IMG/VR virus record: IMGVR_UViG_3300009503_000073
Source of the DNA: a virus
Strand: one strand, 5' to 3'
DNA: 33,164 nt
This document shows positions 2,812 to 31,637 of this stretch, one piece after another; positions within the stretch are counted from its first letter, which is position 1; each line of letters begins with the position of its first letter. Below the pieces are notes generated by a model that was given only the letters and a program-made list of their open reading frames with translations, was not told the DNA's origin and did no database searches. The translations under genes and the position numbers were made by a program.

Positions 2812-2842
2812 TCCGTTTAGCTCATCTTAAACCCTGTAAAAT

Positions 2843-2866
2843 TTTAACTTTTCTTTTTCTTTTTTT
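2843..2866 (+). terminator. Oligo-T terminator
   Basis: TTTTAACTTTTCTTTTTCTTTTTTT downstream of the micro-ORF. Confidence 0.5.
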
Positions 2867-2960
2867 GTGGTTAACTTTTCATGCTGATTTTTCCGCGGGA
2901 TTGCTTATCAAACGCGCCTTTACATATCCGATTTAATAATGGTTTGGATGTTAGGCGCCC

Positions 2961-3266: not shown

Positions 3267-3268
3267 CC

Positions 3269-4122: not shown

Positions 4123-4136
4123 AGGAGGAAAAGAAA

Positions 4137-4529: not shown

Positions 4530-4539
4530 CGTGAGGGCC

Positions 4540-4974: not shown

Positions 4975-5069
4975 CACACGAGTACGGTTACACCCTCGAC
5001 TACATCAGCTCCCTAACACCGTTCCAGCTATCGTTCCTAGTCAGTTGGCTGCGTTGGCGCCACAAATAG
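4908..5069 (+). CDS. -1 frame extension of the tail chaperone (gpGT-like C-terminus)
   Basis: The -1 frame is open to TAG 5067-5069 with no ATG: FFARPTADWIDATPQAQIIGIIAHEYGYTLDYISSLTPFQLSFLVSWLRWRHK, resembling gpT-type C-termini. Confidence 0.75.
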   Translation, partial: FFARPTADWIDATPQAQIIGIIAHEYGYTLDYISSLTPFQLSFLVSWLRWRHK

Positions 5070-5079
5070 GCGAAATCGT

Positions 5080-6567
5080 ATGAGCTCCAACATAAACGTG
5101 ACAATCAAAGCAACCGATGAGGCAAGCGAAGTTGTAGCGGAAGCTGGACGCAACATAACCGAAAGCATGCAAGACGTGGAATTAGCAGGAAAACAAGTAA
5201 CCGAGTCGCAGAGAAAGACAGATGCGAGCGCCAAGGACCTTGCATTGGGTTTCAGCGGATTAGCTACGTCTGCTTTTTCACTCTACTGTGCCTATGACCG
5301 AGTCCAGAACGCAGAGCTAAGCGTCGACAAAGCTACTTTGGGGTTGCAGCGAAGCCAACAGGCGCTTACTAAAACTCAGCAGGAAGCCGAGAAAGCTGGA
5401 CGGGACTTGGAGAAAGCGCAAGTTGACCTAGAACAGGCAATCGAACAGTACGGCGACGGTAGCAAGGAAGCGGAAGCAGCACAGCGAAAACTCGACGACG
5501 CCACACAGAAATACACAAACTCGTCTAATCAGCTGCAAATTGCTCAAGACGCATTGAGGGTCTCTGAAGAACGAGTTAAACAAGCAGAAGAAAACAAAAC
5601 TCAAGCCATGATTAGCGGTTCACTACAGGTTATACCTACTGTCATAACAATGGTTGGCGGTTTAAGCACGATAACTGGAAGCTGGACAGCTATCCAAGGA
5701 GCCGCAACCACTGCAACCGGAGCATTGAGTGGCGCTTTGAATTTTCTTGCGGCTAACCCGATTGTGGCTGTTGTCACGGCCATAGGCTTGATTGTTGCTG
5801 CTTTAATTGCTGCCTATAATGCTTGTCCACCTTTCCGTGATGCCATAAACGCCATTGGACAAGTCCTCGGAGGCGCCTTAAGCGCCGCGATTAACGCGGT
5901 CTATAACGGGTTGAAGTGGCTTTGGGACAACGTGCTGGTTCCGCTTGGGAAATTCGTGGCATCAGTATTCATCGGTTACTGGAACGGACTGGTTGCTGTT
6001 TGGAATGTGCTTTCGTCTGCCATAGGCGCAGTTTACAATGGGCTGAAATGGCTCTGGGACAATGTTCTGGTGCCTCTTGGCAACTTTGTTGCCGGCGCCT
6101 TGCTGGGTGCTTGGAATGCTTTTGCTGGTGGTTTGAAGTGGGCCTATGACACATTCATCAAGCCAGTTGTCGATGCGTTAACATGGGCTTATAATAACAT
6201 CCTCAAGCCCATTGGCGATTTCTTCAGCGGAGTCGGCAATGCTCTTGGCGGTTTAGGGAACGCTATCAGCGGAGGCTTAGGCAGCATAGGCAAGATGCTG
6301 GGTTTAGCTGAAGGGGGAATAGTCACCAGTCCGACCGTTGCCCTAATCGGCGAGACAGGACCTGAAGTCGTCGTCCCACTCGACAAACTGTCAAGCAGTT
6401 CCAGCGTTGGTTCTCAGACGCTGGTTTTGGCTCCTACATTCAACTTTCCAGAAGGTAGCGTAAGCCAGAGTCAGGAACCGAGAGAATTCGCTGAAGCTGT
6501 TTACGAGCATCTTAGCAGGATTGTGCGTTCCGACTTGAAGGCTCAGACGTTCTTTGTGCCGAGGTAA
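5080..6567 (+). CDS. Tape measure protein
   Basis: 495 aa; N-terminal INVTIKATDEAS, coiled-coil region, Ala/Gly-rich hydrophobic repeats with periodic W/F/Y, C-terminal LAEGGIVTSPTVALIGETGPEVVVPL motif. Confidence 0.92.
   Translation: MSSNINVTIKATDEASEVVAEAGRNITESMQDVELAGKQVTESQRKTDASAKDLALGFSGLATSAFSLYCAYDRVQNAELSVDKATLGLQRSQQALTKTQQEAEKAGRDLEKAQVDLEQAIEQYGDGSKEAEAAQRKLDDATQKYTNSSNQLQIAQDALRVSEERVKQAEENKTQAMISGSLQVIPTVITMVGGLSTITGSWTAIQGAATTATGALSGALNFLAANPIVAVVTAIGLIVAALIAAYNACPPFRDAINAIGQVLGGALSAAINAVYNGLKWLWDNVLVPLGKFVASVFIGYWNGLVAVWNVLSSAIGAVYNGLKWLWDNVLVPLGNFVAGALLGAWNAFAGGLKWAYDTFIKPVVDALTWAYNNILKPIGDFFSGVGNALGGLGNAISGGLGSIGKMLGLAEGGIVTSPTVALIGETGPEVVVPLDKLSSSSSVGSQTLVLAPTFNFPEGSVSQSQEPREFAEAVYEHLSRIVRSDLKAQTFFVPR
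5896..6081 (+). repeat. Internal duplication in the tape measure gene (2 x 54 nt, 132-nt period)
   Basis: AVYNGLKWLWDNVLVPLG is encoded at 5896-5949 and 6028-6081, with 12 of 18 codons differing synonymously. Confidence 0.85.
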
Positions 6568-6574
6568 CCCAAAA

Positions 6575-7375
6575 ATGACGGTGTCACTTGGAGGACTAAA
6601 CCTTGGCGTCGTGAATGGCTTCAGCTTCTCTGACCCGAAGAGGCTGGAAGACATTGATTTGCCAGCAGCCCGAGGAAGCAGCAGTCAAGACTTAGGCGAA
6701 CAAGCTTCAACCATAGAGCTGACTGGAATATTGCGTGAACCAAGCAGGTTCGATGACTTCAAGCAGCTTCAAAGAGCAAAGCGCTTGGGAAACAGTTTAA
6801 AACTGGACTCAGACGCCGTTTCCACCGTTGTCTTTGTTAAAGAGGTCAGACTTGCCAAAGTTGGCGTGAACATTCTCAGATACAGCCTTTCACTAAAGGA
6901 GAGTCTGTTTAAGCTGGTTAACTCATGTGACAGCCTCTTGGATTGGTCAACTCAAACGGTGGATGCAGTTGTTGGCGTCGTTTCAGGTTCACCGGTTCCG
7001 CTTGAAGGTGCAGCATGCATAAAAGTCAGTCACGACGCAGAGGCTGCCGAAGAAGTCAACCTAACCTATGACCCGATAGACGTTATAGACCTCGAGGATT
7101 TTGATTGGCTAAGCTTCGCATGGTTAATGAGCGATGTCTCGGGGATTAGCGGTGCCACCATAAAGGTTAGTGAAGGCACAAACAATGCTACATACGATTT
7201 CTCAGCACTGATAGCAGAAGCTGAAAAGTGGTTAAGGCTTCGAATCCATAAAACCTCTTTCATAAACCATGGCGCTCTCGATTGGGGACAGATTGACAAG
7301 ATAAAGTTCGCTGTAACTAAGGCTCAGGCTCAAAACTACTTTTTCGCTGTTGATGATGTGGGAGGTTTTGAGTGA
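6575..7375 (+). CDS. Distal tail (Dit-like) protein with a C-terminal beta-sandwich, possibly carbohydrate-binding, domain
   Basis: Follows the TMP; N-terminal DIDLPAARGSSSQDLGEQASTIELTG; C-terminal WLRLRIHKTSF...LDWGQIDKIKF is CBM-like. ATG 6575 chosen as start. Confidence 0.55.
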   Translation: MTVSLGGLNLGVVNGFSFSDPKRLEDIDLPAARGSSSQDLGEQASTIELTGILREPSRFDDFKQLQRAKRLGNSLKLDSDAVSTVVFVKEVRLAKVGVNILRYSLSLKESLFKLVNSCDSLLDWSTQTVDAVVGVVSGSPVPLEGAACIKVSHDAEAAEEVNLTYDPIDVIDLEDFDWLSFAWLMSDVSGISGATIKVSEGTNNATYDFSALIAEAEKWLRLRIHKTSFINHGALDWGQIDKIKFAVTKAQAQNYFFAVDDVGGFE

Positions 7376-9468
7376 TGGGTAGTTACAAGAACGTTCTGTT
7401 CAAGGACTCCTTCATTGGAACCGCTGGTTATCCACCTGATAGGGGGAAGTGGTTTGCCTTTCTCACACGTGAGAACACTAGCGTAAAATTCACTGACGGT
7501 GCCATTGAGCCGACTGTGAATGGTTGCCGCTTTGTTGCTGCTGTGGATTCTAACGGCTGGGGTGGCTTAAACCTGATGAGCAGAGCCGAATTCAAGGTGC
7601 CCTTCAAAGTTCGAGTAATCATAAAGCCGATCACGTTTGGCTTCTACTTCTATCTTTTGTCGCCTGATATTCGTGATGGTCACTTTTTGGGAACCGAAGT
7701 CTACGGCATGTGGGTTGCCATACTCTACGGCACAGTTGCGGACAACAAATTCCGGTTTGTCGTCAGCCAAGACTACTCGCCAAAGGCCAAATCGTCAGAG
7801 GCAACTTGGAGACTAAACACTGAGTACATAGTCGAAATGGAAATAACACCGTATGCTTCTAACTCTCGCAAATTTAACGTGGATTTGACTGTTAAGCTGG
7901 TTTCTGACGGTTCGTTGGTTTGGCGGGTTAGCGACTGGTGTGACCAGAGCTTATCAGCAACTTTGCGTTGCGCTTTTAGTGCACGTGCAGACGCTTCAGG
8001 GGCAATCGAGTTCTACGCTAAATCACTGCTTGTCTTTGGAAACCAGAGTCGAAAAGCAAAGGCAATCGTAAGTGCAGTGACAGGTAATGATAAGCGGGTT
8101 ATCACTGATGATGTCATAGACTTCAGGGTCGTTCTCCGTGACGGCAGTCACCCTCAGGCTTCTTTAACGATTAAGAATGAGGGCAACAAGTACGACGAGC
8201 TCAGTGTCAAATCGGAAATTGAGATCAGAGCGGGCACAGAGGCTATTCTCTACTTGCTTTTCCGAGGCTACATCGACGCTCCCGAGAGGACTTATCCGCC
8301 GTCTCGGCTTAAGGTTGAGAGTGGCAAAGGCTATGCTAAACGCTTAGACTTCAGAGAAGCCTACAACAAAACGTACACGAACAAGACATGCGGATTTATA
8401 GTCAAAGACTTAATCAAGACCTATTTTGACGGCGTCTTTTGGTATGACAACGTCTTAGACGGCATAGTCATCTCTGCAGAATACAACGCTGCCCCAGTTT
8501 CAAAGATAATCAAGGAGCTTGCAGACGTCAATGTTTTCGTCTGGGGCGTAGACTTCAACAAAACCGTCTACTTCTACCCATTCAGCCTCGCACGCAGCCA
8601 AAGCAGCATACCGTTCAAGAGCAAAAGCGACCAGTTCAACATCAGCAACCGAGACATCGACGAAGTCGTAAACTACGTGCATCAGGTGGGCAAGACTGTT
8701 TCTGGCTTGCCCTACGACTACACGGCGCATGATGCGACTAGCGAAGCTAACTTTTGGCGACGTGACAAGACGTTCAAGGACGTAAGCCTGTCATCTCAGG
8801 CTGCAACTCAAGCCAAAGCCGAAGGCTTGCTGCAGAAGTACAAGGAGCTAACCAAGGAAATTGCGCTTGAAACCAAGAACATCGTGCCCATCGACCTGTA
8901 CTGCATGGCAACCATAACCAACACAGAAGTTGGCTTAAACGAGTATAACGGCGAAGTCAAGAGCGTAGAGTTCACCTACTCGGCACGAGGTGTCAGGACC
9001 ACCGTTTTGTTCCAGAATCGTGGCTTCAAGCTTGCGGATGCTTTGGCTGCTTATCAGGAGGCTTTGTCGGCTAAGGATTCAGGCTTAAACAACGCTGGCA
9101 CGGGAACAGACGGTGAAGAGGAGCAGCCGGAGGAAGAATTTGGCTTCATAACCATCAACCTTGCAGACGGCTACGTCCAGAGTTTGGAGCAGGCGCTTCT
9201 CTCAGACAGCATACTCTTCGATCCAATAGAGCTAACACGTTTCGAAGACGAGGTTTTGTGTAATCTTGCTCCTCAGGCCTCTCTTTTGGAAGAGCGAAGG
9301 CAGCTTGAGTTCTGCATGACCGAGTCGCTCTACTTGAACCATGGCGGGACAAAGCAGGTTGGCGAAGTCTGCGTTTATCTTGAAACTCATCTTCGGAGCA
9401 TGAATGAGAATTATGCTGGAGCTGATGTTCCAGCTTTCGATGAGGTTTTGGAGGTAACCAATGAGTGA
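7372..9468 (+). CDS. Tail tip/baseplate hub protein with an N-terminal beta-rich insertion
   Basis: 698 aa; hub-like segment IIKELADVNVFVWGVDFNKTVYF...IDEVVNYVHQVG...AKAEGLLQKYK; acidic C-terminus; GTGA overlap with the upstream gene. Confidence 0.65.
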   Translation: MMGSYKNVLFKDSFIGTAGYPPDRGKWFAFLTRENTSVKFTDGAIEPTVNGCRFVAAVDSNGWGGLNLMSRAEFKVPFKVRVIIKPITFGFYFYLLSPDIRDGHFLGTEVYGMWVAILYGTVADNKFRFVVSQDYSPKAKSSEATWRLNTEYIVEMEITPYASNSRKFNVDLTVKLVSDGSLVWRVSDWCDQSLSATLRCAFSARADASGAIEFYAKSLLVFGNQSRKAKAIVSAVTGNDKRVITDDVIDFRVVLRDGSHPQASLTIKNEGNKYDELSVKSEIEIRAGTEAILYLLFRGYIDAPERTYPPSRLKVESGKGYAKRLDFREAYNKTYTNKTCGFIVKDLIKTYFDGVFWYDNVLDGIVISAEYNAAPVSKIIKELADVNVFVWGVDFNKTVYFYPFSLARSQSSIPFKSKSDQFNISNRDIDEVVNYVHQVGKTVSGLPYDYTAHDATSEANFWRRDKTFKDVSLSSQAATQAKAEGLLQKYKELTKEIALETKNIVPIDLYCMATITNTEVGLNEYNGEVKSVEFTYSARGVRTTVLFQNRGFKLADALAAYQEALSAKDSGLNNAGTGTDGEEEQPEEEFGFITINLADGYVQSLEQALLSDSILFDPIELTRFEDEVLCNLAPQASLLEERRQLEFCMTESLYLNHGGTKQVGEVCVYLETHLRSMNENYAGADVPAFDEVLEVTNE

Positions 9469-9477
9469 GGATGAACT

Positions 9478-9729
9478 ATGCCAGTTGAAATCGTGAGAGG
9501 ACAAGTTGGAAGGGAGAACGTTTGGAACGTGGGGCAAGAAAGTGGCTTCATAGCGTACATGCGGGGTAGCATAGGCGACGCCCCATTAAGGGAAGAGGCG
9601 TTGAGTTTTGGAGATGCAAGGATGCTGAGCGATTCCTACGGCTTGGTTGAGATTTTGCTTTACAGTGAAGGAAAGATTGGGGAGGATGTGCTCAGTCTTT
9701 CCGAGTCAACAACAATCACGAACACGTAA
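9478..9729 (+). CDS. Hypothetical tail-associated protein
   Basis: 83-aa acidic ORF within the tail operon. Confidence 0.55.
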   Translation: MPVEIVRGQVGRENVWNVGQESGFIAYMRGSIGDAPLREEALSFGDARMLSDSYGLVEILLYSEGKIGEDVLSLSESTTITNT

Positions 9730-9748
9730 AGGGAGGTGGAAAAAGCAA

Positions 9749-10402
9749 ATGGATTTGCCAAGAAGACCGCTGACAATTGCGGAGTACAACGTCTTGAAGC
9801 GGAGTATCTGCCTGTCAAAACAGAAAATCAAAGACGTCTTCAAGCGCAGAAACACTTTCGGCGATGTCGTTACCATAACAGACGAAATCAGAGTTTACGA
9901 GGGCAAGAAACTCAGGTTCGCAACCAAAGGTCACATCGTCAACCAAGGTTTAACTCACCTGATTAACTTGTTGTCACCGACTGCTTTAGCTTACAGCTCA
10001 GGGTTGCATGGGACGTCCTATCAATGGACTTCCAAGACGACGTACATGCGACTCGGCACAGGCGGGAACGTTACTCAGGGAACCACGACTGGATTAACAA
10101 CTCCTGTCGGGGCAGCCCCTGACTCCCAAGCTGGAGTTACATCTTCTCCTGGTGGCGGCACTTATCGCATAGCATGGACTGCAACGTGGAATGCCGGTTC
10201 GTTGACGGCTATAACAGTTTCAGAAATTGGCCTGTTCCTTGACTTGGTAACTAACTTGCAGGGCTTTGGTTGGACGTACGGTGGCGGCGGCACAGCCTTG
10301 TTCAGTCGCCTAAGCGCTGCAGATGGCGATTTCACGGCTTTCGTGGTTAACACAAGTGTGCCTTTGACGATTGAGTGGCGGTTGACCTTCACTTTCGCAT
10401 AG
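9749..10402 (+). CDS. Tail fibre/collar-associated protein (DUF3751-like pattern)
   Basis: ATG 9749 with SD GGAGGTGG; IVNQGLTHLINL...MRLGTG...TATWNAG...SEIGLF...LFSRL...LTIEWRLTF pattern seen in tail-collar/fibre anchoring proteins. Confidence 0.55.
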   Translation: MDLPRRPLTIAEYNVLKRSICLSKQKIKDVFKRRNTFGDVVTITDEIRVYEGKKLRFATKGHIVNQGLTHLINLLSPTALAYSSGLHGTSYQWTSKTTYMRLGTGGNVTQGTTTGLTTPVGAAPDSQAGVTSSPGGGTYRIAWTATWNAGSLTAITVSEIGLFLDLVTNLQGFGWTYGGGGTALFSRLSAADGDFTAFVVNTSVPLTIEWRLTFTFA

Positions 10403-10407
10403 TTTGT

Positions 10408-10423
10408 TCCCCGTTTTTGGGGA
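10408..10423 (+). terminator. Hairpin at the end of the tail operon
   Basis: TCCCC-GTTTTT-GGGGA immediately after stop 10402. Confidence 0.45.
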
Positions 10424-10456
10424 TTTCGCAGTCACGATGAGGGGAGTTGAGGAAAA

Positions 10457-10654
10457 ATGGAGAGACGGAACATGGAAAAAGTTAGAAATTACGTTAAGTC
10501 AGCGTACTTGCGCAGGAAATGGCAAGCCATCTGGGAAAAGGTCGGGAAACGAATCTTAGCTTTGCCTGAGCAGACGCAAGAGGACTTGCTGCAGGACATC
10601 AGCGAAGCTGTTGAAAGTCGCATCGCCACCATGGAGAGAGCTAATCGTGAGTAA
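10457..10654 (+). CDS. Hypothetical small helical protein
   Basis: 65 aa, SD GAGG/GGAG upstream, coupled to the next gene. Confidence 0.65.
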   Translation: MERRNMEKVRNYVKSAYLRRKWQAIWEKVGKRILALPEQTQEDLLQDISEAVESRIATMERANRE

Positions 10655-11081
10655 GGCGGTGTTGAAGGCTTTGGAGCAGGTTAAGCCAGGAGACTTGATC
10701 TGTGTGGATTGGCTGGATGCTAGCCGAGGCAAAATCGAAACCGTCCGAGAGCTCCGAGAAGTGGGCGTTCCAGGAGCCGTCATAGACAGCCCCGTCAAGA
10801 GCTACGGCGTATTCATTGGATTATTCGGCAAGAGAAGCAAGCACATCGTCATGGTTGCAAGCCTCTGGGTGTTCACCGCTGTAGCCGACTATGGCCAAGT
10901 GGACACGACTATCATTCCTGTGGGCACGGTTGAGAACGTGCACGTCATCCAGTCTGGAATTCTGGACGTGGAGCGTGTTCGGCTTTGTCAAGCGGCTTTC
11001 ATGATGGGACGCTGCCATCACTACCTTAGGCGTTTTCAGATTAAGGGCAGAACCTTCGAGGTGAAAAGAGACGCTAGATAA
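10647..11081 (+). CDS. Hypothetical protein with an Sm/SH3-like beta-barrel pattern
   Basis: GTG 10647 overlaps the previous stop; GDLICVDWLDAS...SYGVFIG...TTIIPVGTVENV pattern common in viral small-barrel proteins. Confidence 0.6.
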   Translation: MSKAVLKALEQVKPGDLICVDWLDASRGKIETVRELREVGVPGAVIDSPVKSYGVFIGLFGKRSKHIVMVASLWVFTAVADYGQVDTTIIPVGTVENVHVIQSGILDVERVRLCQAAFMMGRCHHYLRRFQIKGRTFEVKRDAR

Positions 11082-11118
11082 ACTAAGACAATTCATCAGA
11101 GAACGCTTCACTCGGGTT

Positions 11119-11394
11119 ATGCTGGTTTCCGAAGGCACCCCTGAGAGCATACCAGCTGATACTACAAGGACAAGCAGGACTCGGTCAAGAAGGTTCAGGC
11201 GTGTTACTGTTCCGCCTTCTGAACGTTTTGTCTGGGGCATGGTCGGCTTAATCATCGCCTTGATAGGCGCCATCATCTTGGAAGGGATGTACTTGGTTTT
11301 GACTAGTGGCAAGGTAAGCATGGAGTTGCTTGCTGTCATTTCTGGACTTGTGGGCAGCTTGACGACTTGCGTGGTCATGGGGAAGAGAACATGA
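11119..11394 (+). CDS. Two-TM membrane protein
   Basis: Hydrophobic segments FVWGMVGLIIALIGAIILEGMYLVL and LLAVISGLVGSLTTCVVM; the frame is open upstream to 11065. Confidence 0.65.
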   Translation: MLVSEGTPESIPADTTRTSRTRSRRFRRVTVPPSERFVWGMVGLIIALIGAIILEGMYLVLTSGKVSMELLAVISGLVGSLTTCVVMGKRT

Positions 11395-11690
11395 GAAGCT
11401 TCGAAGTTAGAGCAGCATTCGAGAAGGTCTTCAAGAAACTTGACATTATAGATGCCAAAGTAAGCGCTATGCCCCAAGTACAGGTTCAGGTGTCCGAAAA
11501 GTTCCTGCCTACCCTGAACGCTCTCACCAAACTGGGCAAGCCAGCCACAAGCTCCGACATAGCACAGATTACAGGCAGAAACCGGGCGACGGAAAGTCAG
11601 ATTCTCAACGAACTTGCAGGTCGAGGAGTCGTGATTAAGGCAAGAAAGAGTCGCAAAATTCTTTTCTCATCAAGGAGGAGTCAGGCGTGA
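11391..11690 (+). CDS. Winged-helix transcription regulator (TrmB/ArsR-like)
   Basis: ATGA overlap at 11391; PATSSDIAQITGRNRATESQILNELAGRGVV HTH. Confidence 0.75.
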   Translation: MRSFEVRAAFEKVFKKLDIIDAKVSAMPQVQVQVSEKFLPTLNALTKLGKPATSSDIAQITGRNRATESQILNELAGRGVVIKARKSRKILFSSRRSQA

Positions 11691-11776
11691 TTTGGCTTGT
11701 TTGGGTCTTAACTTGGCTGGGCGGATTCCTATTCGGTTTTTCTGTGGGTTACTGGTTGGTGGGTAAGCGGAAATGA
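11687..11776 (+). CDS. 29-aa single-TM microprotein
   Basis: Read manually: MIWLVWVLTWLGGFLFGFSVGYWLVGKRK; SD GGAGGAG; GTGA overlap upstream and ATGA overlap with the terminase small subunit start. Confidence 0.65.
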   Translation: MIWLVWVLTWLGGFLFGFSVGYWLVGKRK

Positions 11777-12201
11777 CGAAGGGTAAGCCTTGGACTGTTG
11801 AAGAGGAAAAGCAGCTGGAGCAGATGCTGCGTGAAAACAGGTCAGTTAGGGCTATTGCTAAAGCGCTTGGGAAAACTCGTGATTGCGTACGCATGAAGAT
11901 AGCGCGTCTTGGGTTAGAAGTTGTTGTTCAGGCTAAATCAGAGCGAACAACAACTACCAGTTTAAAGCTGCCGACCGAGTTGCCCAGCCTTGAAGAAGCG
12001 TTGAAAACGTTAAGTGCAGCGATGAAGGCTTTGGAGACTCCTGGTTTGGATCAGGCTGAGGTTTTGCGTTTGCGCAGCATCATTCAAGCCGTGAAAATCT
12101 ACAATGAGCTCTTTCCCAAGTATGTGGATATTCGGGGTTTTGAAGCTGAAGTTATGGAGCTGAAGAAAAAACTTGATGACGAGAGGGACAAGAAGGGCTA
12201 G
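11773..12201 (+). CDS. Probable terminase small subunit (N-terminal Myb/SANT-like HTH)
   Basis: KPWTVEEEKQLEQML...VRAIAKALGKTRDCVRMKIARLGL; directly upstream of and overlapping TerL. Confidence 0.6.
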   Translation: MTKGKPWTVEEEKQLEQMLRENRSVRAIAKALGKTRDCVRMKIARLGLEVVVQAKSERTTTTSLKLPTELPSLEEALKTLSAAMKALETPGLDQAEVLRLRSIIQAVKIYNELFPKYVDIRGFEAEVMELKKKLDDERDKKG

Positions 12202-13687
12202 AACGTGGCATAAGGCGGACTATGACCTGCAACGCCAACAGCTAAGAGAGGGTGCCAAGGTTCTGGACGAGTCTAGGAAGGCGGCTGTTGAACAGGTTAG
12301 GGGCGACACTGCTAGGTTCTTCAGAGACGTCTGCAAGCTGACGCCTTTCTGGTATCAGCTTGAGCTGGCGCAGTTGTACCGTGAGAACCAGTTTTTGGCT
12401 GTGCGTTGGCCACGTCAAACGGGTAAGAGCACGTCTATTGGGGCTTTGCTTTTGCAGGATGCCTACGAGAACCCTGACCTCTACATAGGTTTTATCGGTC
12501 CAAGCTGGCGCCAAACCAAGCTCAACATCAGGCGAGTAGCCAGCTTCTGCCGAAACCTTCCAGCTCAAGATGTTCGTGTGCAGAAGACAAGAATCAGCTT
12601 CTCCAACGGTTCAATCATCGAGGCGTTTCCGAACAATCCTGATACGGTGAGGGGAAACACGTTTCACCGTTTGTACTGGGACGAATGCGGATTCACACCC
12701 AACGATGAAGACTTGTACGATGCCATTCTTTTCACGTTGGGAACAACCAACGGCAAGCTAATTGCCAGCAGTACGCCATTTAATAGTGATTCTTTGTTTT
12801 GGAAGATGTGCAATCACCGCGATTATTCGGATTTTGCTAGGCATCACTTCACGTATGAACGGGCTTTGGCGCCTAATGGTCCCTTGAGTCCTGAGATGGT
12901 TACGCGGATTAAGCGGCAGTTTGGCGATGACCCAGCACGATGGCGACGCGAAATGGAAGCCGAATGGGCAGAAGATGAAGATGTTTGGCTGGCGCAGAGC
13001 CTCATCGTTTCTTGTGTGGGCACTGCTAAGAATTGTGGGGAAGACTTGCAAGAGTTTAATCCTGAAGCAAGTTATGAAGGCGAGTTCTTTGGCGGCTTAG
13101 ACCTTGCACAGACACGGGATTACTGTGTGTTTGCTGTGGTTGAGCGGGTTAATGATAGGCTTTTGCTTAGGCATCTGAAGGTGTTTTCGCAGCCGACTAA
13201 GTATACTCATGTGTTAGGCTACATCAAAGCCTTGCAGGACCGTTGGGGCGGGTTTGAGAAAATCCGTGTCGACTTTACACGTGAAGGTCCAAGCATCATT
13301 AGTGACATGGAGAATGCTGGCATAAACAATGCTGAAGGCGTCAACTTTAGTGTGCCCCGCAAGAGTGAGATGGCTTCGCTGTTGAAGCAGCGGATGATGG
13401 ATCAACGGTTCTTTTATCCGCTTTTGACTTGGGAGAAGCCTTACCGCGGGGACATCTGTAGTGAATTGAATGTGGAGCGTTATGAGCTGCGCAGAGACGG
13501 AGCCGTCGGTTTTAGTCATCCAAACGGCACGCATGACGACGTGTTCTGGAGTTTGGCGCTTGCATGTTATGCGACTGTGACTATGGGTCCTGAACCCTTC
13601 TTATCAGTTGTGCCAAGGATTGCTAACCGATTGAGCAAAATCAGGAAGCAGTTGGTGAGGCGCAAAATGTTGGGGGATACGCATTGA
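12173..13687 (+). CDS. terL: Terminase large subunit
   Basis: Walker A RWPRQTGKST, Walker B LYWDE, ASSTP coupling motif, RNaseH-like nuclease GGLDLA...HDDVFWSLALA. Confidence 0.95.
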   Translation: MMTRGTRRARTWHKADYDLQRQQLREGAKVLDESRKAAVEQVRGDTARFFRDVCKLTPFWYQLELAQLYRENQFLAVRWPRQTGKSTSIGALLLQDAYENPDLYIGFIGPSWRQTKLNIRRVASFCRNLPAQDVRVQKTRISFSNGSIIEAFPNNPDTVRGNTFHRLYWDECGFTPNDEDLYDAILFTLGTTNGKLIASSTPFNSDSLFWKMCNHRDYSDFARHHFTYERALAPNGPLSPEMVTRIKRQFGDDPARWRREMEAEWAEDEDVWLAQSLIVSCVGTAKNCGEDLQEFNPEASYEGEFFGGLDLAQTRDYCVFAVVERVNDRLLLRHLKVFSQPTKYTHVLGYIKALQDRWGGFEKIRVDFTREGPSIISDMENAGINNAEGVNFSVPRKSEMASLLKQRMMDQRFFYPLLTWEKPYRGDICSELNVERYELRRDGAVGFSHPNGTHDDVFWSLALACYATVTMGPEPFLSVVPRIANRLSKIRKQLVRRKMLGDTH

Positions 13688-15126
13688 GGAACAGAAACAA
13701 CTACTTTAGAGTGAGAAGGGTTTGCCGAACCTACGACCGAACGCAGGGCAAGTTCAGCTTCAACATTTCTTACGAAACCACGGTGAAGCTTACGCCACGA
13801 GCTTTGGTTGTGGCTGAAGCGTTTGGGTTAGGTGTTGACCAAGCCCAGAAATTCACCGTTCTAAACACTGAGCTGATGATTGCTCCAACCGACATCGTCT
13901 ACATCACAGGCGACAGTGGTAGCGGAAAATCTGTTTTACTGCGGGCGTTGCGCAAAGACTTGGGTGAGGAGGCTGTGGATTTATCCGAGGTTGCAATCAA
14001 TGTGGATAAGCCTCTTATCGAGACAGTTGGCAGAACAGTCGAGGAAGGCCTGGAGCTTCTGAGCAAGGTTGGCTTGAATGACGCGTTTCTTTTCCTACGT
14101 ACATACAGCCAGCTAAGTGACGGTCAGAAGTACCGTTACCGAATAGCCAAGCTCATCGAAAGCGGCAAGCAGTGGTGGCTTATGGACGAGTTCGCCGCTT
14201 GCTTGGACAGGGACACAGCTAAGATTATTGCGTTTAACCTGCAGAAAATCGCTCGGCAACAGGGCAAAGCCGTGATAGCCGCCACAACCCACAGCGACCT
14301 GCAAGAGGACTTAAAGCCCAGTGTGCTTGTGCGGAAACGGTTTGGAGAAGAAATCCAGATCAGCTATTACCCAAACGAAGCAGCGAAAGAATGCAGTCTC
14401 GTCCGAGAGATGAAGGCTGAACAAGGAACCATCAACGACTGGCGCAAGCTCAGCAACTTCCATTACCGAGGACACAAGGTTGCTGCACCCCGAAAGATAT
14501 TCCGCTTGGTAAGAGGCGAGGAGCTATGTGGTGTTATTGTTTACACGTATCCTCCCCCTAATTGTTTCGGAAGGCGAATGGTGTTGCCTCGAATGTCTAT
14601 CCGAGAAATAAACAATCAACTGAGCATCATAAACCGGGTAGTTATCCATCCAAAATACAGAACCATTGGGTTAGGCTCCATGATAATTCGGGAGACATTG
14701 CCTTTGGTGGGCACACCATACGTGGAGATGATTGCAGTTATGGCAAAGTATTCACCTTTTGCGGAGAAGGCAGGTATGCGTAAGGTTGCGGAGCAGCGAA
14801 CCGTTGAAAGTGTTTCGGCTGTTTCTGGGGTGCTTTTGGATTTAGGGTTTGACCTGCAACTCTTAGGCAGCGAACGCTATGTTACTGACAAACTTGTAAG
14901 CCTGTCCTCCTCACAACTTGAGAAATTGAAAGAAACGTTTGCTAAATGCGTGCACCCTCGATTCAAGAAGGAGTTTGAGAGTAGCAGACATCAACCTTTT
15001 GGAAAAACAGCAGATTACGTTAGAAGCGTTAAGAAATCAGATAAAGGAAAGCTGGCTAAGCTTATTAAAGTGGCTGGAATGCTCTTGCAAACAAAAGTCT
15101 ATCTAATATGGAAAGAAAAGGAATAA
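13684..15126 (+). CDS. ABC-type ATPase fused to a GNAT acetyltransferase
   Basis: Walker A GDSGSGKS, ABC signature LSDGQKYR, Walker B WLMDEF, H-loop ATTHSD; C-terminal GNAT acetyl-CoA motif RVVIHPKYRTIGLG. No TM segments. Confidence 0.85.
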   Translation: MRNRNNYFRVRRVCRTYDRTQGKFSFNISYETTVKLTPRALVVAEAFGLGVDQAQKFTVLNTELMIAPTDIVYITGDSGSGKSVLLRALRKDLGEEAVDLSEVAINVDKPLIETVGRTVEEGLELLSKVGLNDAFLFLRTYSQLSDGQKYRYRIAKLIESGKQWWLMDEFAACLDRDTAKIIAFNLQKIARQQGKAVIAATTHSDLQEDLKPSVLVRKRFGEEIQISYYPNEAAKECSLVREMKAEQGTINDWRKLSNFHYRGHKVAAPRKIFRLVRGEELCGVIVYTYPPPNCFGRRMVLPRMSIREINNQLSIINRVVIHPKYRTIGLGSMIIRETLPLVGTPYVEMIAVMAKYSPFAEKAGMRKVAEQRTVESVSAVSGVLLDLGFDLQLLGSERYVTDKLVSLSSSQLEKLKETFAKCVHPRFKKEFESSRHQPFGKTADYVRSVKKSDKGKLAKLIKVAGMLLQTKVYLIWKEKE

Positions 15127-26405: not shown

Positions 26406-26548
26406 TTCAAATTAACCCCAGACTTGCATTAGCCTGATACCACAAATAGTCCCTCACAGATAATATGATTTACGCATTCCAACTCAACAACACGCAACCG
26501 ATGCATCATCGAAAATCTTAAACCACACATCCACCAAACAAAGCAAAC

Positions 26549-26699
26549 ATGAGTTCAACGAAGAAAAAAGCGCTTCTGCGAAGTCTGCGGCAAAGAAATA
26601 TCCCAGCAAGAGTACGAAGATTATGACGGGATGTGTTGGGAATGCTGGGACAACCAGCTAACCGAGGAATCCGACGCCATGTTCGGAGACCTAATTTAG
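26549..26699 (+). pseudogene. Zn-finger microprotein interrupted by one extra A in an A-run
   Basis: The frame with KRFCEVCGKEISQQEYEDYDGMCWECWDNQLTEESDAMFGDLI has no start. ATG 26549 joins it if the A6 run at 26564-26569 were A5. Confidence 0.55.
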
Positions 26700-26705
26700 A
26701 CTTTC

Positions 26706-26852
26706 CTAAACTTTTCCTGCCCGTGAAATCAAGTCTTCGATGACATCATTGAAGGTCTGGGCTTTTCCCGTTTTAACCATCCGCTCGCCCAGCAATCGCG
26801 TAAGCTTGCAGTAGACAGAAATTAGAATACTACAGAAAAATAGCAAGCCCAT
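26706..26852 (-). CDS. Possible small antitoxin/RHH-like protein, perhaps degenerate
   Basis: Read manually, 48 aa: ...KLTRLLGERMVKTGKAQTFNDVIEDLISRA resembles archaeal small DNA-binding/antitoxin proteins; the N-terminus is atypical. Confidence 0.35.
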   Translation of the reverse strand: MGLLFFCSILISVYCKLTRLLGERMVKTGKAQTFNDVIEDLISRAGKV

Positions 26853-26945
26853 CTCAGACTAGCTTCAGGATTGACAGGAACCCATATGAAATAGTTAAAC
26901 CTGAAAAGTTTCTCTATATCGGGTTCCCAGACGATATGTCGGAGA

Positions 26946-27194
26946 GTGAGGAAGATGGTTAGGTTCCAAAAACGTTGGACAAGTAGACGTTATAAGGGTA
27001 ACAATCGCCGCTACCCAATCTACTCCGTAAACTTCCCAGCAAAACTAAACGAAAACGTCGAAACTAAACGGAAAAAGGACTACGACCTGAAATGGTTAGA
27101 GCAGGAAACGGATGAAGAAGAGATAATTACTGTAACCTTCACAAGAAAGAAAACCAAAAGTCCCGCTCAAACTGTCAGTCCGCACAAATCGTAA
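26946..27194 (+). CDS. Small basic hypothetical protein (possibly AbrB-like)
   Basis: 82 aa, basic N-terminus, YSVNFPAKL beta-strand pattern; SD-like GGAG/GAGG upstream. Confidence 0.55.
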   Translation: MRKMVRFQKRWTSRRYKGNNRRYPIYSVNFPAKLNENVETKRKKDYDLKWLEQETDEEEIITVTFTRKKTKSPAQTVSPHKS

Positions 27195-27279
27195 TTTCTT
27201 AGAAACTGCTACCCCCCGCACAAAGAATTCTGGCAGCCGTTTGCCCTTTGTCTCAGCTAGAAATGTTATGGGAAAAACG

Positions 27280-27437
27280 TTGCTAGCACTAGAAAAACTC
27301 GAAAAAGACCTCGATAAAACTCGAGAAAAAGACGACTATAAACCACGCTTGCAACTAAATTTTTACATGAACCTGTCAATTTTGGCAACATAGCGGCTTT
27401 AACCGAATTTTGCCCAAGGGATTTCTAGCGCTAGCAA
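27280..27437. repeat. 16-bp inverted repeat enclosing CTCGA/A-tract repeats
   Basis: TTGCTAGCACTAGAAA (27280-27295) versus TTTCTAGCGCTAGCAA (27422-27437): 15/16 reverse-complementary. Confidence 0.7.
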
Positions 27438-27541
27438 AAATTTTCTCAAGACAAAGTAGCGAAAAAAACTAACACTAACGTGATAAGCTGGTTTCAGCGC
27501 CTAATTTTCTACCTTCAACCTCCTTAGCGGAGCTGACAAAT

Positions 27542-27949
27542 ATGGCGCAAACAAACAGAAAGGGCATACCGCTTCAACCATTCATCGGCAGAGGAGCCGC
27601 CCTAAACCGCGCCATAATCAGCACCCTGGAAGACAAGCAGCCTCAGACGACACGTCAAATAGGAAAGAACGTAACCAGCACAAGAAAGTTTAAAGGCACA
27701 AGCCTTTCCACCGTAAACAAAAGAGTAAGAAACCTTGAAGAACAGGGCTACCTCAGCAAAATCCAAGTTAAAGAAAGAATCGGCGGACCAACAAATTACT
27801 ACCAGCTGACACCCAAAGCGTACCTTGCCCGATTCATAGACAGCAACAGCATCGAAGACCTATTTGAAAAAATAAGCGGCGAAACTGCCCTAATACTTCT
27901 CGCAGACCTGGCGAACACCAAACTGGACAAGGAAACACAAAAACAGTGA
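27542..27949 (+). CDS. Winged-helix DNA-binding protein
   Basis: QTTRQIGKNV...SLSTVNKRVRNLEEQGYL...YYQLTPKA. Confidence 0.8.
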   Translation: MAQTNRKGIPLQPFIGRGAALNRAIISTLEDKQPQTTRQIGKNVTSTRKFKGTSLSTVNKRVRNLEEQGYLSKIQVKERIGGPTNYYQLTPKAYLARFIDSNSIEDLFEKISGETALILLADLANTKLDKETQKQ

Positions 27950-27985
27950 CTCCCACTCCATCAACTACCTTGTCTTCTGAAAAGT

Positions 27986-28348
27986 TCATCGTTCAACAAT
28001 ATGGTCGGTAAGACCATTTAAAATGCCAACGTAAACAGGCACGTATTTTCTAACGACAGGTTCAATCTGTTGAAGAACCACAAAAATCAGAGCCCTAAAC
28101 TTCACATCCTGCACGGACGCTTCCGGATAATTCTTTCGCATTCGACGCATGGCCTCAATTATGAAGCACTCAGCCTTCTCCGTAATATCGTACGTACCCA
28201 CGTCTGAGCCATCTTTCACCAAGCCATGCACCTTTAGCTCCCTGATGCACTCTTCAACTATCTTTTTAGTTACTTTCGCATGCATCTTCACTCTACCCTT
28301 CCTTCTGACAATCGACAGGATCAGAATCACTCGCTGGTCGGCTTGCAC
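27986..28348 (-). CDS. Hypothetical protein with a wHTH-like wing motif
   Basis: IRELKVHGLVKDGSDVGTYDITEKA; the real start may be the internal MHAK. Confidence 0.55.
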   Translation of the reverse strand: MQADQRVILILSIVRRKGRVKMHAKVTKKIVEECIRELKVHGLVKDGSDVGTYDITEKAECFIIEAMRRMRKNYPEASVQDVKFRALIFVVLQQIEPVVRKYVPVYVGILNGLTDHIVER

Positions 28349-28745
28349 TTTTTTTGGGCGCCTCTTTGAGAAACGGATACTTATCCTCTAAATGGCAACA
28401 CAACCCACCCACCATAGTCGCATAGACATCGAACATCTCAACCTTACTCTTCTTGCCAATCTTCGATTTCATTATCTCAAAGAGTATCTTCTCGTTGCGC
28501 CGTAAAAGCCTCTCAAGCTTGCGTCCTAAGGGTTGTTGAGACGGCGTTTCGTTAAAGATGCTTCTAACTGTCTTTTCTGTTCCCATATCTGTTCCCATTG
28601 TTCCCATGCCACTGTTCCCAATAGTGTGCTTTACAAACTTACGCTTTCCGTCAATATACTCATAATGAATGATTCTAACAGAATTGCCTCTTTGCTCCAC
28701 TATGCCTTCTCTACCACAAACAGAACAAACTGCTTTCATGCTCAC
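28293..28745 (-). CDS. Zn-ribbon protein resembling N-terminal fragments of archaeal split integrases
   Basis: CSVCG...IIHY...KH putative Zn ligands, then MGT repeats (GTTCCCA x4 on the plus strand); SD GAAGGTG. Relation to an integrase is inference. Confidence 0.55.
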   Translation of the reverse strand: MSMKAVCSVCGREGIVEQRGNSVRIIHYEYIDGKRKFVKHTIGNSGMGTMGTDMGTEKTVRSIFNETPSQQPLGRKLERLLRRNEKILFEIMKSKIGKKSKVEMFDVYATMVGGLCCHLEDKYPFLKEAPKKSASRPASDSDPVDCQKEG

Positions 28746-28752
28746 ACCTTCT

Positions 28753-28875
28753 TTAGTTTAATCCTTTCAGCTTATTCTCTATCAGTCTTGATAGGCTAAG
28801 ATTCTTCTCTTTCATTTCCTTCTGGAGTTCTGCTAACAACTGCTCATCGATTGAGATGTTTATTTTCTTTCTCAT
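28753..28875 (-). CDS. Ribbon-helix-helix (CopG-like) regulator, 40 aa
   Basis: Read manually: MRKKINISIDEQLLAELQKEMKEKNLSLSRLIENKLKGLN, a classic alternating beta-ribbon followed by LSRLIE. Confidence 0.8.
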   Translation of the reverse strand: MRKKINISIDEQLLAELQKEMKEKNLSLSRLIENKLKGLN

Positions 28876-28890
28876 GTTAACCATCTATCT

Positions 28891-28920
28891 AATAAGTAGT
28901 AATAAGTGGTATATTATAAT
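28891..28920 (-). promoter_or_regulatory. Promoter with a 10-bp tandem repeat (candidate RHH operator)
   Basis: AATAAGTAGT-AATAAGTGGT (28891-28910) between a TTATAAT box and the RHH start codon. Confidence 0.5.
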
Positions 28921-29132
28921 TAACCTTCGACATCTATTCGATAAATATTCCCCTGCTCACTAGAATTCTAAAAATTGCCTGTCCATAAAAGACGTTAAGA
29001 CCAACAAAACACAAACGTCACAGTATAATCATGCTTTCGGTTGCAATTAACAAAACGCTATCATAATCATACTTGACATTGTCGGTAATTGCATAGAAAT
29101 AGAAGGGATTCGTGCTAAAGCTATCGTAACCA

Positions 29133-29321
29133 TTATTCTTTAAATTTTCTCTTAAGGTAATAATACTGTAGAAAAGCTCCAACTCCAGCCAAACCAATGC
29201 CTATGAGAATTTCATTTTGATTATTTGTTTTAAGTCCATCGTATAAAAACCATAATCCACCAAGAATAAAAGCAGTTGTTGGAATTATTTTCATAAAGAT
29301 ATTAAGGCTAATTAATCCCAA
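29133..29321 (-). CDS. Small two-TM membrane protein
   Basis: 62 aa, two hydrophobic helices, basic C-terminus; AT-rich region. Confidence 0.6.
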   Translation of the reverse strand: MGLISLNIFMKIIPTTAFILGGLWFLYDGLKTNNQNEILIGIGLAGVGAFLQYYYLKRKFKE

Positions 29322-29332
29322 TAGTTACACCT

Positions 29333-29578
29333 TTAACTTTTAATTATTTTTCTTTTTGACAATCTATCATATATTCTTTCAGTTGCTTCAGTTAGAAGTG
29401 CTGCAATAAAACAAGTGCCACCAAAAATCCATATCCATCCAAATATGTTAGACATTGGAATTTTATCATAGTCTATTGTGCCAGCATAATTAGGTGTGTT
29501 ATAAGTTTGAAAAAACATTATCAAAGCTATGACGGTTAAATATAAGAAAAACAACCACCACATTCTCAAGTTTATCAC
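29333..29578 (-). CDS. Small two-TM membrane protein
   Basis: 81 aa, two hydrophobic helices, basic C-terminus; AT-rich region. Confidence 0.6.
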   Translation of the reverse strand: MINLRMWWLFFLYLTVIALIMFFQTYNTPNYAGTIDYDKIPMSNIFGWIWIFGGTCFIAALLTEATERIYDRLSKRKIIKS

Positions 29579-29768
29579 CTAAGACCTATTTCTATGCCAT
29601 GTAGATTTAAGCTTTCTCATGCTCTCTGAAAACCAATTCAAAAAATTACTCTAGCCGTAAAAGCCAATAGGCCAACAGAACCCAGACCGCATAGTATAAA
29701 CAGATGCTCTCAGTTGCAACAATAAAAAATAGAAGCTATGGGAACCAGCAACAGACCTCTTCTCACTT

Positions 29769-30056
29769 CTACTTCTTTTCTTTCTTAACAAGCCAAACCT
29801 CTGTAACTTTCTTCTTAGCGTCTCTTACTGTTTTTACATATAAGGATTCTTTCCATCCGAGCTTTTCTATTCTATCCTTCAATGCAACAGCTAAAGAATC
29901 TAGCGTCACATCATTAACTGATACCTGAACACTAGTTGCACTGCTTTTATTGAATGCCTTTATGTCGTCATCGTAACGCTCTCGTTTCCCATGCCTTACT
30001 ATTTTAACTTCTTTGTCCCAATTAGATGGTATTTCTTTGTGTGTTGCAGAATGATT
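29769..30056 (-). pseudogene. Start-less 95-codon ORF, probably a 5'-truncated small DNA-binding protein
   Basis: Stop-free frame ...KEIPSNWDKEVKIVRHGKRERYDDDIKAFNKSSATSVQVSV...LAVALKDRIEKLGW...VWLVKKEKK; no ATG, only internal GTG/TTG. Confidence 0.5.
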
Positions 30057-30250
30057 CTAGCGTATGTCTTAGCGTATTTTGCATTTACCCAGTTCTGAAA
30101 TTGATTCCAGTCAAGAAAAGATTTATCCATGCCATAGACATCATTACCGTTACACGTGCGGTCGTCGTCTAGCTGGTTTAGGACACAATAGTCATGTATC
30201 TGTGGAAGCCTTCCAAGCTTGCCATCCATACGCTCCTGCTCTGACACCAA
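29999..30250 (-). pseudogene. Truncated integrase-like ORF spanning the tRNA-derived att site
   Basis: Antisense read-through of the tRNA fragment (GKLGRLP...VLNQLDDDR), then LDWNQFQNWVNAKYAKTYARIILQHTKKY, resembling the start of the core region of archaeal tyrosine integrases; stops before any catalytic domain. Confidence 0.5.
30158..30227 (+). tRNA. 5' fragment (positions 1 to about 49) of tRNA-Gly(TCC) with a 19-nt non-canonical intron at 29/30; no T-arm or 3' acceptor strand
   Basis: GCGGTCG acceptor 5' strand; D-arm GTCT-AGCTGGTTTA-GGAC; anticodon arm CAA[TAGTCATGTATCTGTGGAA]GC-CTTCCAA-GCTTG; relaxed BHB geometry. Confidence 0.8.
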
Positions 30251-30393
30251 AACAATCCCCTCAAAGCTTTCACAAACTTCAACCTCACCCTAATTACAGA
30301 GCCATTTTCAGTGATTTAAGCAAATTTGCAAGAAAAAACGCAAACTAATCCGAGAATTCAACCCTTTACTCCTCAAGTTTACACATTGCCAGA

Positions 30394-30465
30394 CCCTGTT
30401 CTTTGAGAGGCACTTCAAAGTACCCGGTTCTTTGTGAAGCCCCTGAAAGATCCCTGTTCTTTGAG
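30394..30465 (+). repeat. Three 14-bp direct repeats at exact 29-bp period
   Basis: CCCTGTTCTTTGAG (30394), CCCGGTTCTTTGTG (30423), CCCTGTTCTTTGAG (30452). Confidence 0.85.
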
Positions 30466-30518
30466 GCTGCCAGAATTCCTTTATTTTCCTGCCACGACAC
30501 AGTTTTAGGTGATATGAA

Positions 30519-30758
30519 GTGGTCAACCTCGTGGATGAGTGGGAAGCCCTCGAAAAATACGCTGGCAACACGCCAGGACATTACCAGCTACTAGAGAATG
30601 AAAATAAAATTGAAGTTCGTATCTGGATTGGCAACTGCGGCATCAAAGCCGAGTTCGAAGCCAACGACCCCAAGCTGATGCGGGTTTTGGATTTCTGCTG
30701 GAAACACTGCACCAAGATTTGCGGAAACATCCCAGACAGCGAATTCTTCAACCCATAA
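30519..30758 (+). CDS. Hypothetical protein
   Basis: 79 aa, GTG start with SD AGGTGA; first gene of the rightward replication operon. Confidence 0.7.
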   Translation: MVNLVDEWEALEKYAGNTPGHYQLLENENKIEVRIWIGNCGIKAEFEANDPKLMRVLDFCWKHCTKICGNIPDSEFFNP

Positions 30759-30771
30759 CGGAGACAAGTGC

Positions 30772-30924
30772 ATGGCAGAAACAGAAGACAACCGAAAGGA
30801 GCTGACTCGCCTATTGCGTTCTATCGCCCGAGAAGTCGCCTACGAAGTCATAGACGAACACCTAGAAGACTACGAACACAAGCAGAAGAAGCCAGACGCA
30901 GCCGAGCTGGAGGGCGAGGCTTAA
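30772..30924 (+). CDS. Hypothetical 50-aa protein
   Basis: Read manually: MAETEDNRKELTRLLRSIAREVAYEVIDEHLEDYEHKQKKPDAAELEGEA; TAATG coupling to the next gene. Confidence 0.65.
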   Translation: MAETEDNRKELTRLLRSIAREVAYEVIDEHLEDYEHKQKKPDAAELEGEA

Positions 30925-31295
30925 TGGATAAGCAGGTTGAGTTTCTCGTCAAGCTACGAGACGCCAGCCAAATGATCGCTGACGCAGCAAACGAATACCT
31001 TGAAACCTTCGCGCCGCCAGCAGCAAAAGAGAACAAGCAGCCAGCAGCCGTCCAAGAGATAACTTTCTCGACGTTGCGGTTTGAGGCTCAGCAAGGCGCC
31101 AAACTCGGCGAGTACGAAATTGCCTACAGAACAGGCAACATAGAGGATAAGTGGCGCCAAGCATACAATATCCTGCGGAATAGTAACGCAACCATCCAGA
31201 ACCGCTACTACGGTGAAGGCTACCAGCACAGCTACTGGCTTTATGGAGAAGACAGAATCTACCGCCAGAAACTGAAGCCCAAGACTAGAAACTAA
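30924..31295 (+). CDS. Hypothetical protein
   Basis: ATG 30924 coupled to the previous stop (MDKQVEFLVKLRD...); preferred over the ORF-track start at 30768. Confidence 0.7.
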   Translation: MDKQVEFLVKLRDASQMIADAANEYLETFAPPAAKENKQPAAVQEITFSTLRFEAQQGAKLGEYEIAYRTGNIEDKWRQAYNILRNSNATIQNRYYGEGYQHSYWLYGEDRIYRQKLKPKTRN

Positions 31296-31313
31296 CCGCT
31301 GGAGGCTAAAGTT

Positions 31314-31637
31314 TTGAGGAAATATGATACTTGGGCTAATCTGAACGCTGAAGGCAAAAAGCACTGGGGAGACATCTTCCCCGACGGAGTTGTCCCAGTC
31401 AAAAGCATCATCGAGATACCCGCTAGACTCAAGGGCGTAAGTGGCACCGAAAAAGTGTACATGGTCGACTGGAAAGAACTAACAAAACAGCAACAGGATG
31501 CAATCTTAGAAAAGCTGAACAAGTGCAGTGGCGCACCGAAGGACGAAATTCTAAAAGAAATCCTGAAAGTAGGTTTGCCCCTTCGAGAAAAATACACGAG
31601 CGGCAGCGGCACAACCAGAACAGAGCTTTTCACTTAG
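31314..31637 (+). CDS. Hypothetical protein
   Basis: 107 aa, TTG start with GGAGG upstream, co-oriented in the operon. Confidence 0.65.
   Translation: MRKYDTWANLNAEGKKHWGDIFPDGVVPVKSIIEIPARLKGVSGTEKVYMVDWKELTKQQQDAILEKLNKCSGAPKDEILKEILKVGLPLREKYTSGSGTTRTELFT

Follow-up and report, generated by a model that had tools for sequence, protein, structure and literature searches.

An intron-bearing tRNA-Gly(TCC) 5' fragment in a tailed Bathyarchaeia virus, very probably the attR scar of a dead SSV-type integrative element

The viral window and its tRNA-Gly(TCC) fragment

The stretch of DNA analyzed here, referred to as the window, comprises the 33,164 nucleotides of the IMG/VR virus record IMGVR_UViG_3300009503_000073. 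The window contains a fragment of an HK97-type capsid gene (1-570) and a large terminase gene (12173-13687), followed from ~15.1 to 30.2 kb by a leftward block of lower GC content and from 30519 onward by a rightward module, which includes a 505-aa P-loop protein. Within the leftward block, between 15181 and 26405, lie genes for a GmrSD-like nuclease, a ResIII helicase, an N6/N4 methylase, and a UvrD-PD-(D/E)XK/Cas4-like protein. The nearest virus record, viral contig G001, is 93.8% identical, covers 2245-14797 only, and lacks the region discussed below. A second viral contig, L002, has the rightward module in common with the window (76% amino-acid identity); there, the position equivalent to the leftward block is occupied by another low-GC block, which encodes a 1,066-aa protein that, judged from its sequence alone, would be of the SNF2-helicase type. 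L002 also encodes a classical integrase of 476 aa (PF00589; L002:12167-13597) two genes downstream of its replication gene, and the equivalent place falls just past the right end of the window.

Three similar boxes with the consensus CCYGTTCTTTGWGA and a spacing of ~29 bp are found at 30394-30465, between the interrupted gene described below and the rightward operon, and could be iterons or operator sites. Homology with a related module of the Bathyarchaeota genome G004 begins at the last of these boxes. G004 has homologs (70% identity) of the replication protein and the terminase of the window on different large contigs (contig 5, 23.5-27.2 kb; contig 9, 19.4-21.2 kb), and these regions may be provirus remnants. 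The replication module of G004 abuts host-like genes; neither a tRNA nor an integrase was found at this border, which is uninformative on an att site.

On the plus strand, 30158..30188 corresponds to the 5' exon of a tRNA-Gly(TCC), positions 1-29, and is followed by a 19-nt BHB intron at 29/30 (30189..30207) and by a stretch that reads as tRNA positions 30 to ~50 (30208-30227), where the T-arm is absent. The BHB, two 3-nt bulges with a 4-bp helix between them, is present in relaxed form: the outer pairs are AGG/CCT, the central helix ACAC/GTGG contains an A.G mismatch and three Watson-Crick pairs, and the bulges are AAT and AAG, each divided after the second A. Without its intron, the fragment matches Bathyarchaeia tRNA-Gly(TCC) through position 50 with one mismatch, and the similarity then ends; removal of the intron thus yields no complete tRNA from the window copy, as there is no T-arm. 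Neither ARAGORN nor Rfam called a tRNA when run on the whole window, which is due to the missing T-arm and the odd intron site rather than to a lack of tRNA-derived sequence. A search of the window at up to 3 mismatches detected no tRNA-Gly 3' half.

The frame antisense to the fragment is open over 83 aa, of which 51 aa align at 90% identity to P0001, a 300-aa integrase that matches PF16795, the SSV-type or "suicidal" family. A BRE/TATA-like box, GAAAAGATTTAT (30116..30129, plus strand), lies in the first codons of the integrase and precedes tRNA position 1 by 29-42 nt. The initial annotation of this DNA had described the 5' fragment with its intron and without a T-arm, the relaxed BHB, the antisense integrase-like frame, and the upstream box, and all four are present as described.

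An inserted element with a split integrase

Contig L035 aligns to the window in two blocks, 31213-30206 (92% identity) and 28522-27745 (96.5%), and these blocks have 17 nt of L035 in common. In the more distantly related L036, the same two blocks abut across the intervening DNA, again with a 17-nt overlap. Both contigs carry the uninterrupted, or empty, target site, and the two overlapping blocks therefore identify 28523..30205 of the window as an insertion of 1,683 bp flanked by a 17-bp repeat; it is best read as a decayed SSV-type integrative element. The GC content of the insert is 0.35, vs. 0.44 and 0.49 in its flanks. Two further joints in the contig lay-down, 26699>31075 and 22612>26563, were not counted, as they stem from a relative that is more distant and conserved in short patches. 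An independent contig of 4,848 bp, from a public run, covers 26531-31378 and has five differences, and the stretch is present in runs of at least four studies; the junction is not an assembly artifact.

The insert is flanked by direct repeats of an att core, with one copy at attL (28506..28522, plus strand) and the other at attR (30206..30222, plus strand), the latter covering the anticodon stem-loop of the tRNA fragment. The copies match each other at 15 of 17 positions, and at one synonymous position neither has the base of the empty sites, so that we infer part of the history of the overlap. When attL and attR are compared with the empty sites, the exchange maps to the 7-nt equivalent of the anticodon loop.

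The target in the window is not a tRNA gene but the 5' end of a protein-coding gene for an 87-aa protein. The start and first five codons of this gene (MDGKL) lie at 30213..30229 on the minus strand, where the plus strand resembles tRNA positions 37-50, and its 3' part, from codon 6, lies at 28293..28522 (minus strand), fused in frame behind the N-terminal integrase moiety, Int(N). Stand-alone homologs of the interrupted gene are 87-93 aa in length. P0121, which is 99% identical, begins MDGKLERLL, and P0124 and P0125 extend upstream with ..SEQERMDGKL, the residues encoded on the window minus strand just right of the tRNA fragment. When the empty site is compared on the plus strand with tRNA-Gly positions 27-50 (anticodon arm and variable region), 19 of 24 bases are alike. 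Simulated excision of the insert restores an ORF of the 87-aa type and brings Int(N), a linker, and the Int(C) stub into one frame.

The att site lies inside the integrase ORF, which is split into Int(N) and Int(C). Int(N), a Zn-ribbon N-terminal moiety of 74 codons (28523..28745, minus strand), reads into the attL core, and together with the target-gene part it forms a 150-aa ORF (28293-28745, minus strand) in which the Zn ribbon comes first and the last 79 residues belong to the target gene. Int(N) was matched to the N-termini of unsplit 366-415-aa integrases with an hhalign probability of 80% (E 1.4e-5), and is 67-73% identical to an Int(N)-like ORF of L008. Int(C) begins at an internal ATG (MDKSF...) and is reduced to its first 34-35 codons (30026..30131, minus strand), with integrase homology ending at ~30026-30030. 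According to a profile of 28 relatives (E 2e-11), only positions 6-41, or 36 of 281, are present anywhere in the window; the integrase is therefore a dead stub, its catalytic C-terminal domain being gone. A start-less open frame of ~90 codons (29769..30041, minus strand) abuts the junction of the catalytic-domain deletion, and its beginning where integrase homology ends fits a deletion that fused the stub to another gene of the element. The remaining cargo consists of two small hydrophobic ORFs of 62 and 81 aa (29133..29578, minus strand) and, directly upstream of Int(N), a 43-aa gene of ribbon-helix-helix (CopG-like) type (28753..28884, minus strand), which scores 7e-6 with DUF6364, just under the curated cut-off, and 0.003 with RHH_1, below cut-off.

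Each base of the tRNA fragment can be assigned to one of two sources. The element is the source of positions 1-29, of the intron, and of the beginning of exon 2, and the target gene is the source of the remainder, such that the last "tRNA" bases (~30223-30227, plus the core common to the target) derive from the interrupted gene and not from a tRNA. This composite origin accounts for the missing T-arm, for the mismatch at position 46, and for a match that stops at position 50. The stretch at ~28520-28545 behind Int(N) had also been considered as a sense-strand tRNA relic; the antisense orientation fits better (14/17 vs. 11/17, by eye). It consists of the attL core and the Int(N) linker, and the anticodon arm is nearly palindromic.

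Intact relatives in Bathyarchaeia

Relatives of this integrase comprise 327 proteins at E below 1e-5 and form a large Bathyarchaeia clade. A profile-guided scan of the viral-contig collection with two peptide patterns returned no relative of the family, and neither a free circular form nor an intact sibling of the window element was found. Exact-pattern scans of viral contigs and JGI metagenome contigs, using the tRNA 5' part and an integrase-side 30-mer, gave no match. The 22-mer of tRNA positions 5-26, searched among 185,579 species with one genome each, has 11 matches, all of them in Bathyarchaeia. The fragment is thus a sound host tag for Bathyarchaeia, and this holds because the element and the virus must have met in one cell. 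The precise host prediction of the initial annotation can be retained to this extent; the fragment is not evidence that the virus itself integrates.

Full tRNA-Gly(TCC) genes with an intron at 29/30 are carried by L006 (20 nt), L014 (23 nt), L015 and L016 (19 nt), L017 (29 nt), and G039. The intron of the window is matched at 18 of 19 positions in L015 and L016 and at all 19 in G039, which supplies the archaeal gene with an identical intron for which the initial annotation had proposed to search. The central helix is a perfect 4 bp in L015 (GTGT), and in L017 it reads ACAT/ATGG, with a compensatory change from C-G to U-A. In their spliced forms, the intron-bearing full genes are called tRNA-Gly(tcc) by ARAGORN. 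With intron search on, the unspliced tRNA-Gly genes of L014-L017 and L028-L031 were instead called tRNA-Trp, tRNA-Ser, or undetermined, and intron-bearing tRNA-Gly genes are likely missed or misnamed by ARAGORN-like tRNA finders. In L028 and L030, the intron-bearing gene has a native promoter.

At L014, L015, L016, L017/L018, L029, and L031, the DNA immediately upstream of a complete tRNA-Gly(TCC) gene with intron is occupied by an integrase body in antisense orientation. The initial annotation was thus right in placing an SSV-type att site in the window, with the integrase antisense to the tRNA and with the 5' part of tRNA-Gly(TCC), intron included, as the targeted sequence. Complete integrated elements are present at two loci, one of 4,657 bp (L015) and one of 3,619 bp (G039 contig 7). 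At the far end of both elements, behind a native-looking TATA region, lies a partial and intronless tRNA copy (positions 1-44), and the full gene adjoins the integrase; attR thus contains the intron and attL lacks it. In G039, the two tRNA copies differ in their D-loops as well. Since the intron is present only in the rebuilt copy, the 5' ~30 bases of the rebuilt gene are element-derived and the crossover lies 3' of the intron. Simulated excision yields single ORFs of 406 codons (L015) and 403 codons (G039), in which the Zn-ribbon N-moiety is followed by a linker of antisense tRNA and intron (the intron residues being QIHDY) and then by the catalytic body. The 366-415-aa integrases in the database have the same layout, unsplit. 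Aside from the integrase and att sequences, these 3.6-4.7-kb elements have nothing in common with the virus.

The GAAAAGATTTAT box is identical in L014 and near-identical in L015, L016, and L031, where full tRNA-Gly genes come after it. In G039 and G388, the intron-bearing gene next to the integrase is the only tRNA-Gly(TCC) gene found by pattern search, so this gene must depend on element DNA for its transcription, and its intron must be removed by splicing. These data suggest that the element may supply a replacement promoter for the tRNA gene that it rebuilds, with the BRE/TATA-like box as the putative promoter. The initial annotation had assigned such a role to the window sequence itself. 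Promoter supply is plausible for the intact relatives, in which a TATA-like box precedes the sole tRNA-Gly(TCC) gene; the fragment of the window could be transcribed from the TATA-like box in the integrase start, but is most likely an inert, non-functional by-product.

Several further observations concern the att sites. The attL at true tRNA sites (L015, G039 contig 7) forms a perfect 13-7-13 palindrome around the anticodon loop, and in attP and attR the intron interrupts the left arm of this palindrome. The intron may prevent re-use of the rebuilt gene as a target or affect directionality. The Int(N)-like 108-aa ORF of L008 (4891-5217), with a Zn ribbon 67-73% identical to Int(N), continues directly into a complete tRNA-Gly gene, on the sense strand of that gene. 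It seems that one type of Int(N) is combined with an att in either orientation, which the near-palindromic anticodon arm may permit. In L007 (850-2650), L003 (two copies), and L004, a full tRNA-Gly(TCC) gene has a second, unrelated integrase (PF00589, a 324-aa ORF) in antisense orientation at its 5' end, and at such loci a partial copy (positions 1-34) is found 1.7 kb upstream behind a native-looking promoter. In five loci, the 38 nt that precede the full gene are conserved. Several element families of Bathyarchaeia appear to share the 5' end of tRNA-Gly(TCC) as a hot spot.

Origin of the fragment, its significance, and related systems

Taken together, the fragment is very probably an attR scar, left by a dead SSV-type element that lies at a secondary site in the 87-aa gene of a tailed Bathyarchaeia virus. 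A small element with an SSV-type ("suicidal") tyrosine integrase would have inserted into the genome of such a virus, using an attP inside its integrase gene composed of antisense tRNA-Gly(TCC) positions 1 to ~44 and the 19-nt intron. The partner site would have been the first codons (MDGKLERL) of the 87-aa gene, which mimic the tRNA-Gly anticodon arm on the opposite strand, with strand exchange in the 7-nt equivalent of the anticodon loop. Insertion would have duplicated the 17-bp core and split the integrase, leaving Int(N) at attL, fused to the remainder of the target gene, and Int(C) at attR. A later deletion would then have taken the catalytic domain of Int(C), reducing the element to a 1.7-kb fossil, immobile on its own. 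We know of no experimental demonstration of secondary-site integration by this integrase family, and for the window we infer both integrase-mediated recombination at such a site and the order of these events.

The initial annotation had instead interpreted the junction as an excised or episomal attP of the virus's own integrase, poised for the 5' end of the host tRNA-Gly. The order of features, from integrase body through tRNA positions 1-50 to non-tRNA DNA, does look attP-like, and relatives of the integrase do adjoin full tRNA-Gly genes. However, an episomal attP would require Int(N) upstream of the fragment, where there is a stop in frame; Int(N) lies ~1.4 kb off at the second core copy, and the integrase has no catalytic domain. 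The sibling contigs lack the whole 1.7 kb, the related virus L002 has a different integrase (PF00589, 476 aa), and the two peptide patterns found no member of the family among the viral contigs. The pair of attL and attR and the empty site contradict this reading, which is highly improbable: the junction is the attR of an integrated element, with attL and Int(N) ~1.7 kb to the left, and the att belongs to this small separate element and not to a lysogeny module of the virus. An early alternative, in which the stub was a decayed lysogeny module of the virus as the first leftward gene beside the iteron region, was likewise dropped after the empty sites and Int(N) were found. The fragment is probably not the virus's own integration module.

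Uptake of host DNA by imprecise excision of a provirus from a tRNA-Gly locus would bring in low-GC DNA with tRNA-derived sequence and integrase relics, all of which the segment has, but it would hardly leave precise boundaries and a 17-bp duplication inside an otherwise intact gene, and the tRNA part is of the element type, with the intron and the integrase-side upstream sequence; such an origin is very unlikely. The initial annotation had also weighed, as a less likely alternative, a functional 5' half of a split, trans-spliced tRNA-Gly, which would be consistent with the promoter-like box upstream and with the BHB-forming intron. This idea, already given little credence, becomes scarcely tenable, as the window contains no 3' half at ≤3 mismatches, the 3' end of the fragment is target-gene coding sequence, and the hosts have complete tRNA-Gly(TCC) genes. 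A chimeric assembly of the virus contig with an unrelated element might be suspected from the very high depth of tRNA-derived k-mers in the runs and from one contig that breaks inside the fragment. It is nevertheless extremely improbable, since the independent 4.8-kb contig crosses both junctions, the stretch is present in several studies, and a chimera would not yield a target-site duplication or split halves in frame.

The attR scar and its intact relatives bear on an old question, namely the introns at odd positions in archaeal tRNA genes and the origin of split tRNAs. With rather more doubt than confidence, Bathyarchaeia SSV-type elements might be regarded as vectors of the 29/30 intron of tRNA-Gly(UCC), which swap the promoter and the first ~30 bases of the gene at each integration, with the intron in frame in the integrase linker and perhaps blocking further integration, and with off-target copies that scatter promoter-bearing 5' tRNA halves. 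If true, the scattered 5' halves would provide natural raw material from which disrupted and split tRNA genes could arise. The earlier proposal of mobile-element att sites as intron carriers rested on a single inferred case; with two complete elements that have the intron only in the rebuilt gene, and with integrases that can be reconstituted, the vector model becomes testable at the bench. The window adds the case of a virus that carries such a mobile element, inserted at a look-alike site, and of the orphan tRNA 5' half that the insertion leaves behind.

Temperate phages such as lambda integrate at secondary sites that resemble the core of the normal attB. In contrast to the lambda situation, the DNA invaded here is that of a virus, into which the element carries the 5' half of a tRNA.

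The suicidal integrases have been described mainly from hyperthermophiles and mainly at the 3' ends of tRNA genes, a 5' end target being a noted exception (PMC7253208; PMC8371274). The reconstituted ORFs of L015 and G039 fall within the definition of a suicidal integrase (PMC8371274). Like the SSV1/SSV2-type (type I) systems, which include pTN3 and pT26-2 of Thermococcales (PMC8371274; PMC7253208), the elements described here have an attP in the integrase ORF, which is split into Int(N) and Int(C), an att that is translated as the junction between the two moieties, a tRNA gene as target, and integrated copies that decay to pseudogene relics. Unlike these systems, the host is a member of the Bathyarchaeia, the att is an antisense 5' part with an intron, and Int(N) contains a Zn ribbon; moreover, the window copy, which no longer has a catalytic domain, interrupts a viral protein-coding gene.

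Integration at the 5'-distal side of tRNA genes is rare, with CalSub-E1 among the cases cited in PMC6563490 and AveSNP6_IE1 in PMC7253208. As in these cases, the 5' part of the tRNA gene and the sequence upstream of it have to come from the elements described here; a promoter is not mentioned in PMC3293823, PMC7253208, or PMC6563490. The closest precedent for the intron is the insertion in tRNA-Thr(GGU) of Caldiarchaeum subterraneum, for which an intron-bearing attP was proposed as an intron vector (Sugahara et al., 2012, PMC3293823). There, too, the direct repeat is the tRNA 5' terminus and the intron is found only in the reconstituted gene. On the other hand, the Caldiarchaeum case was inferred from one locus and involves a pNOB8-type element, a recombinase gene that does not overlap the att, and an intron at 24/25 (PMC3293823), whereas the Bathyarchaeia elements have an SSV-type integrase with the intron in its reading frame, and are represented by two complete elements and a stray copy in a virus.
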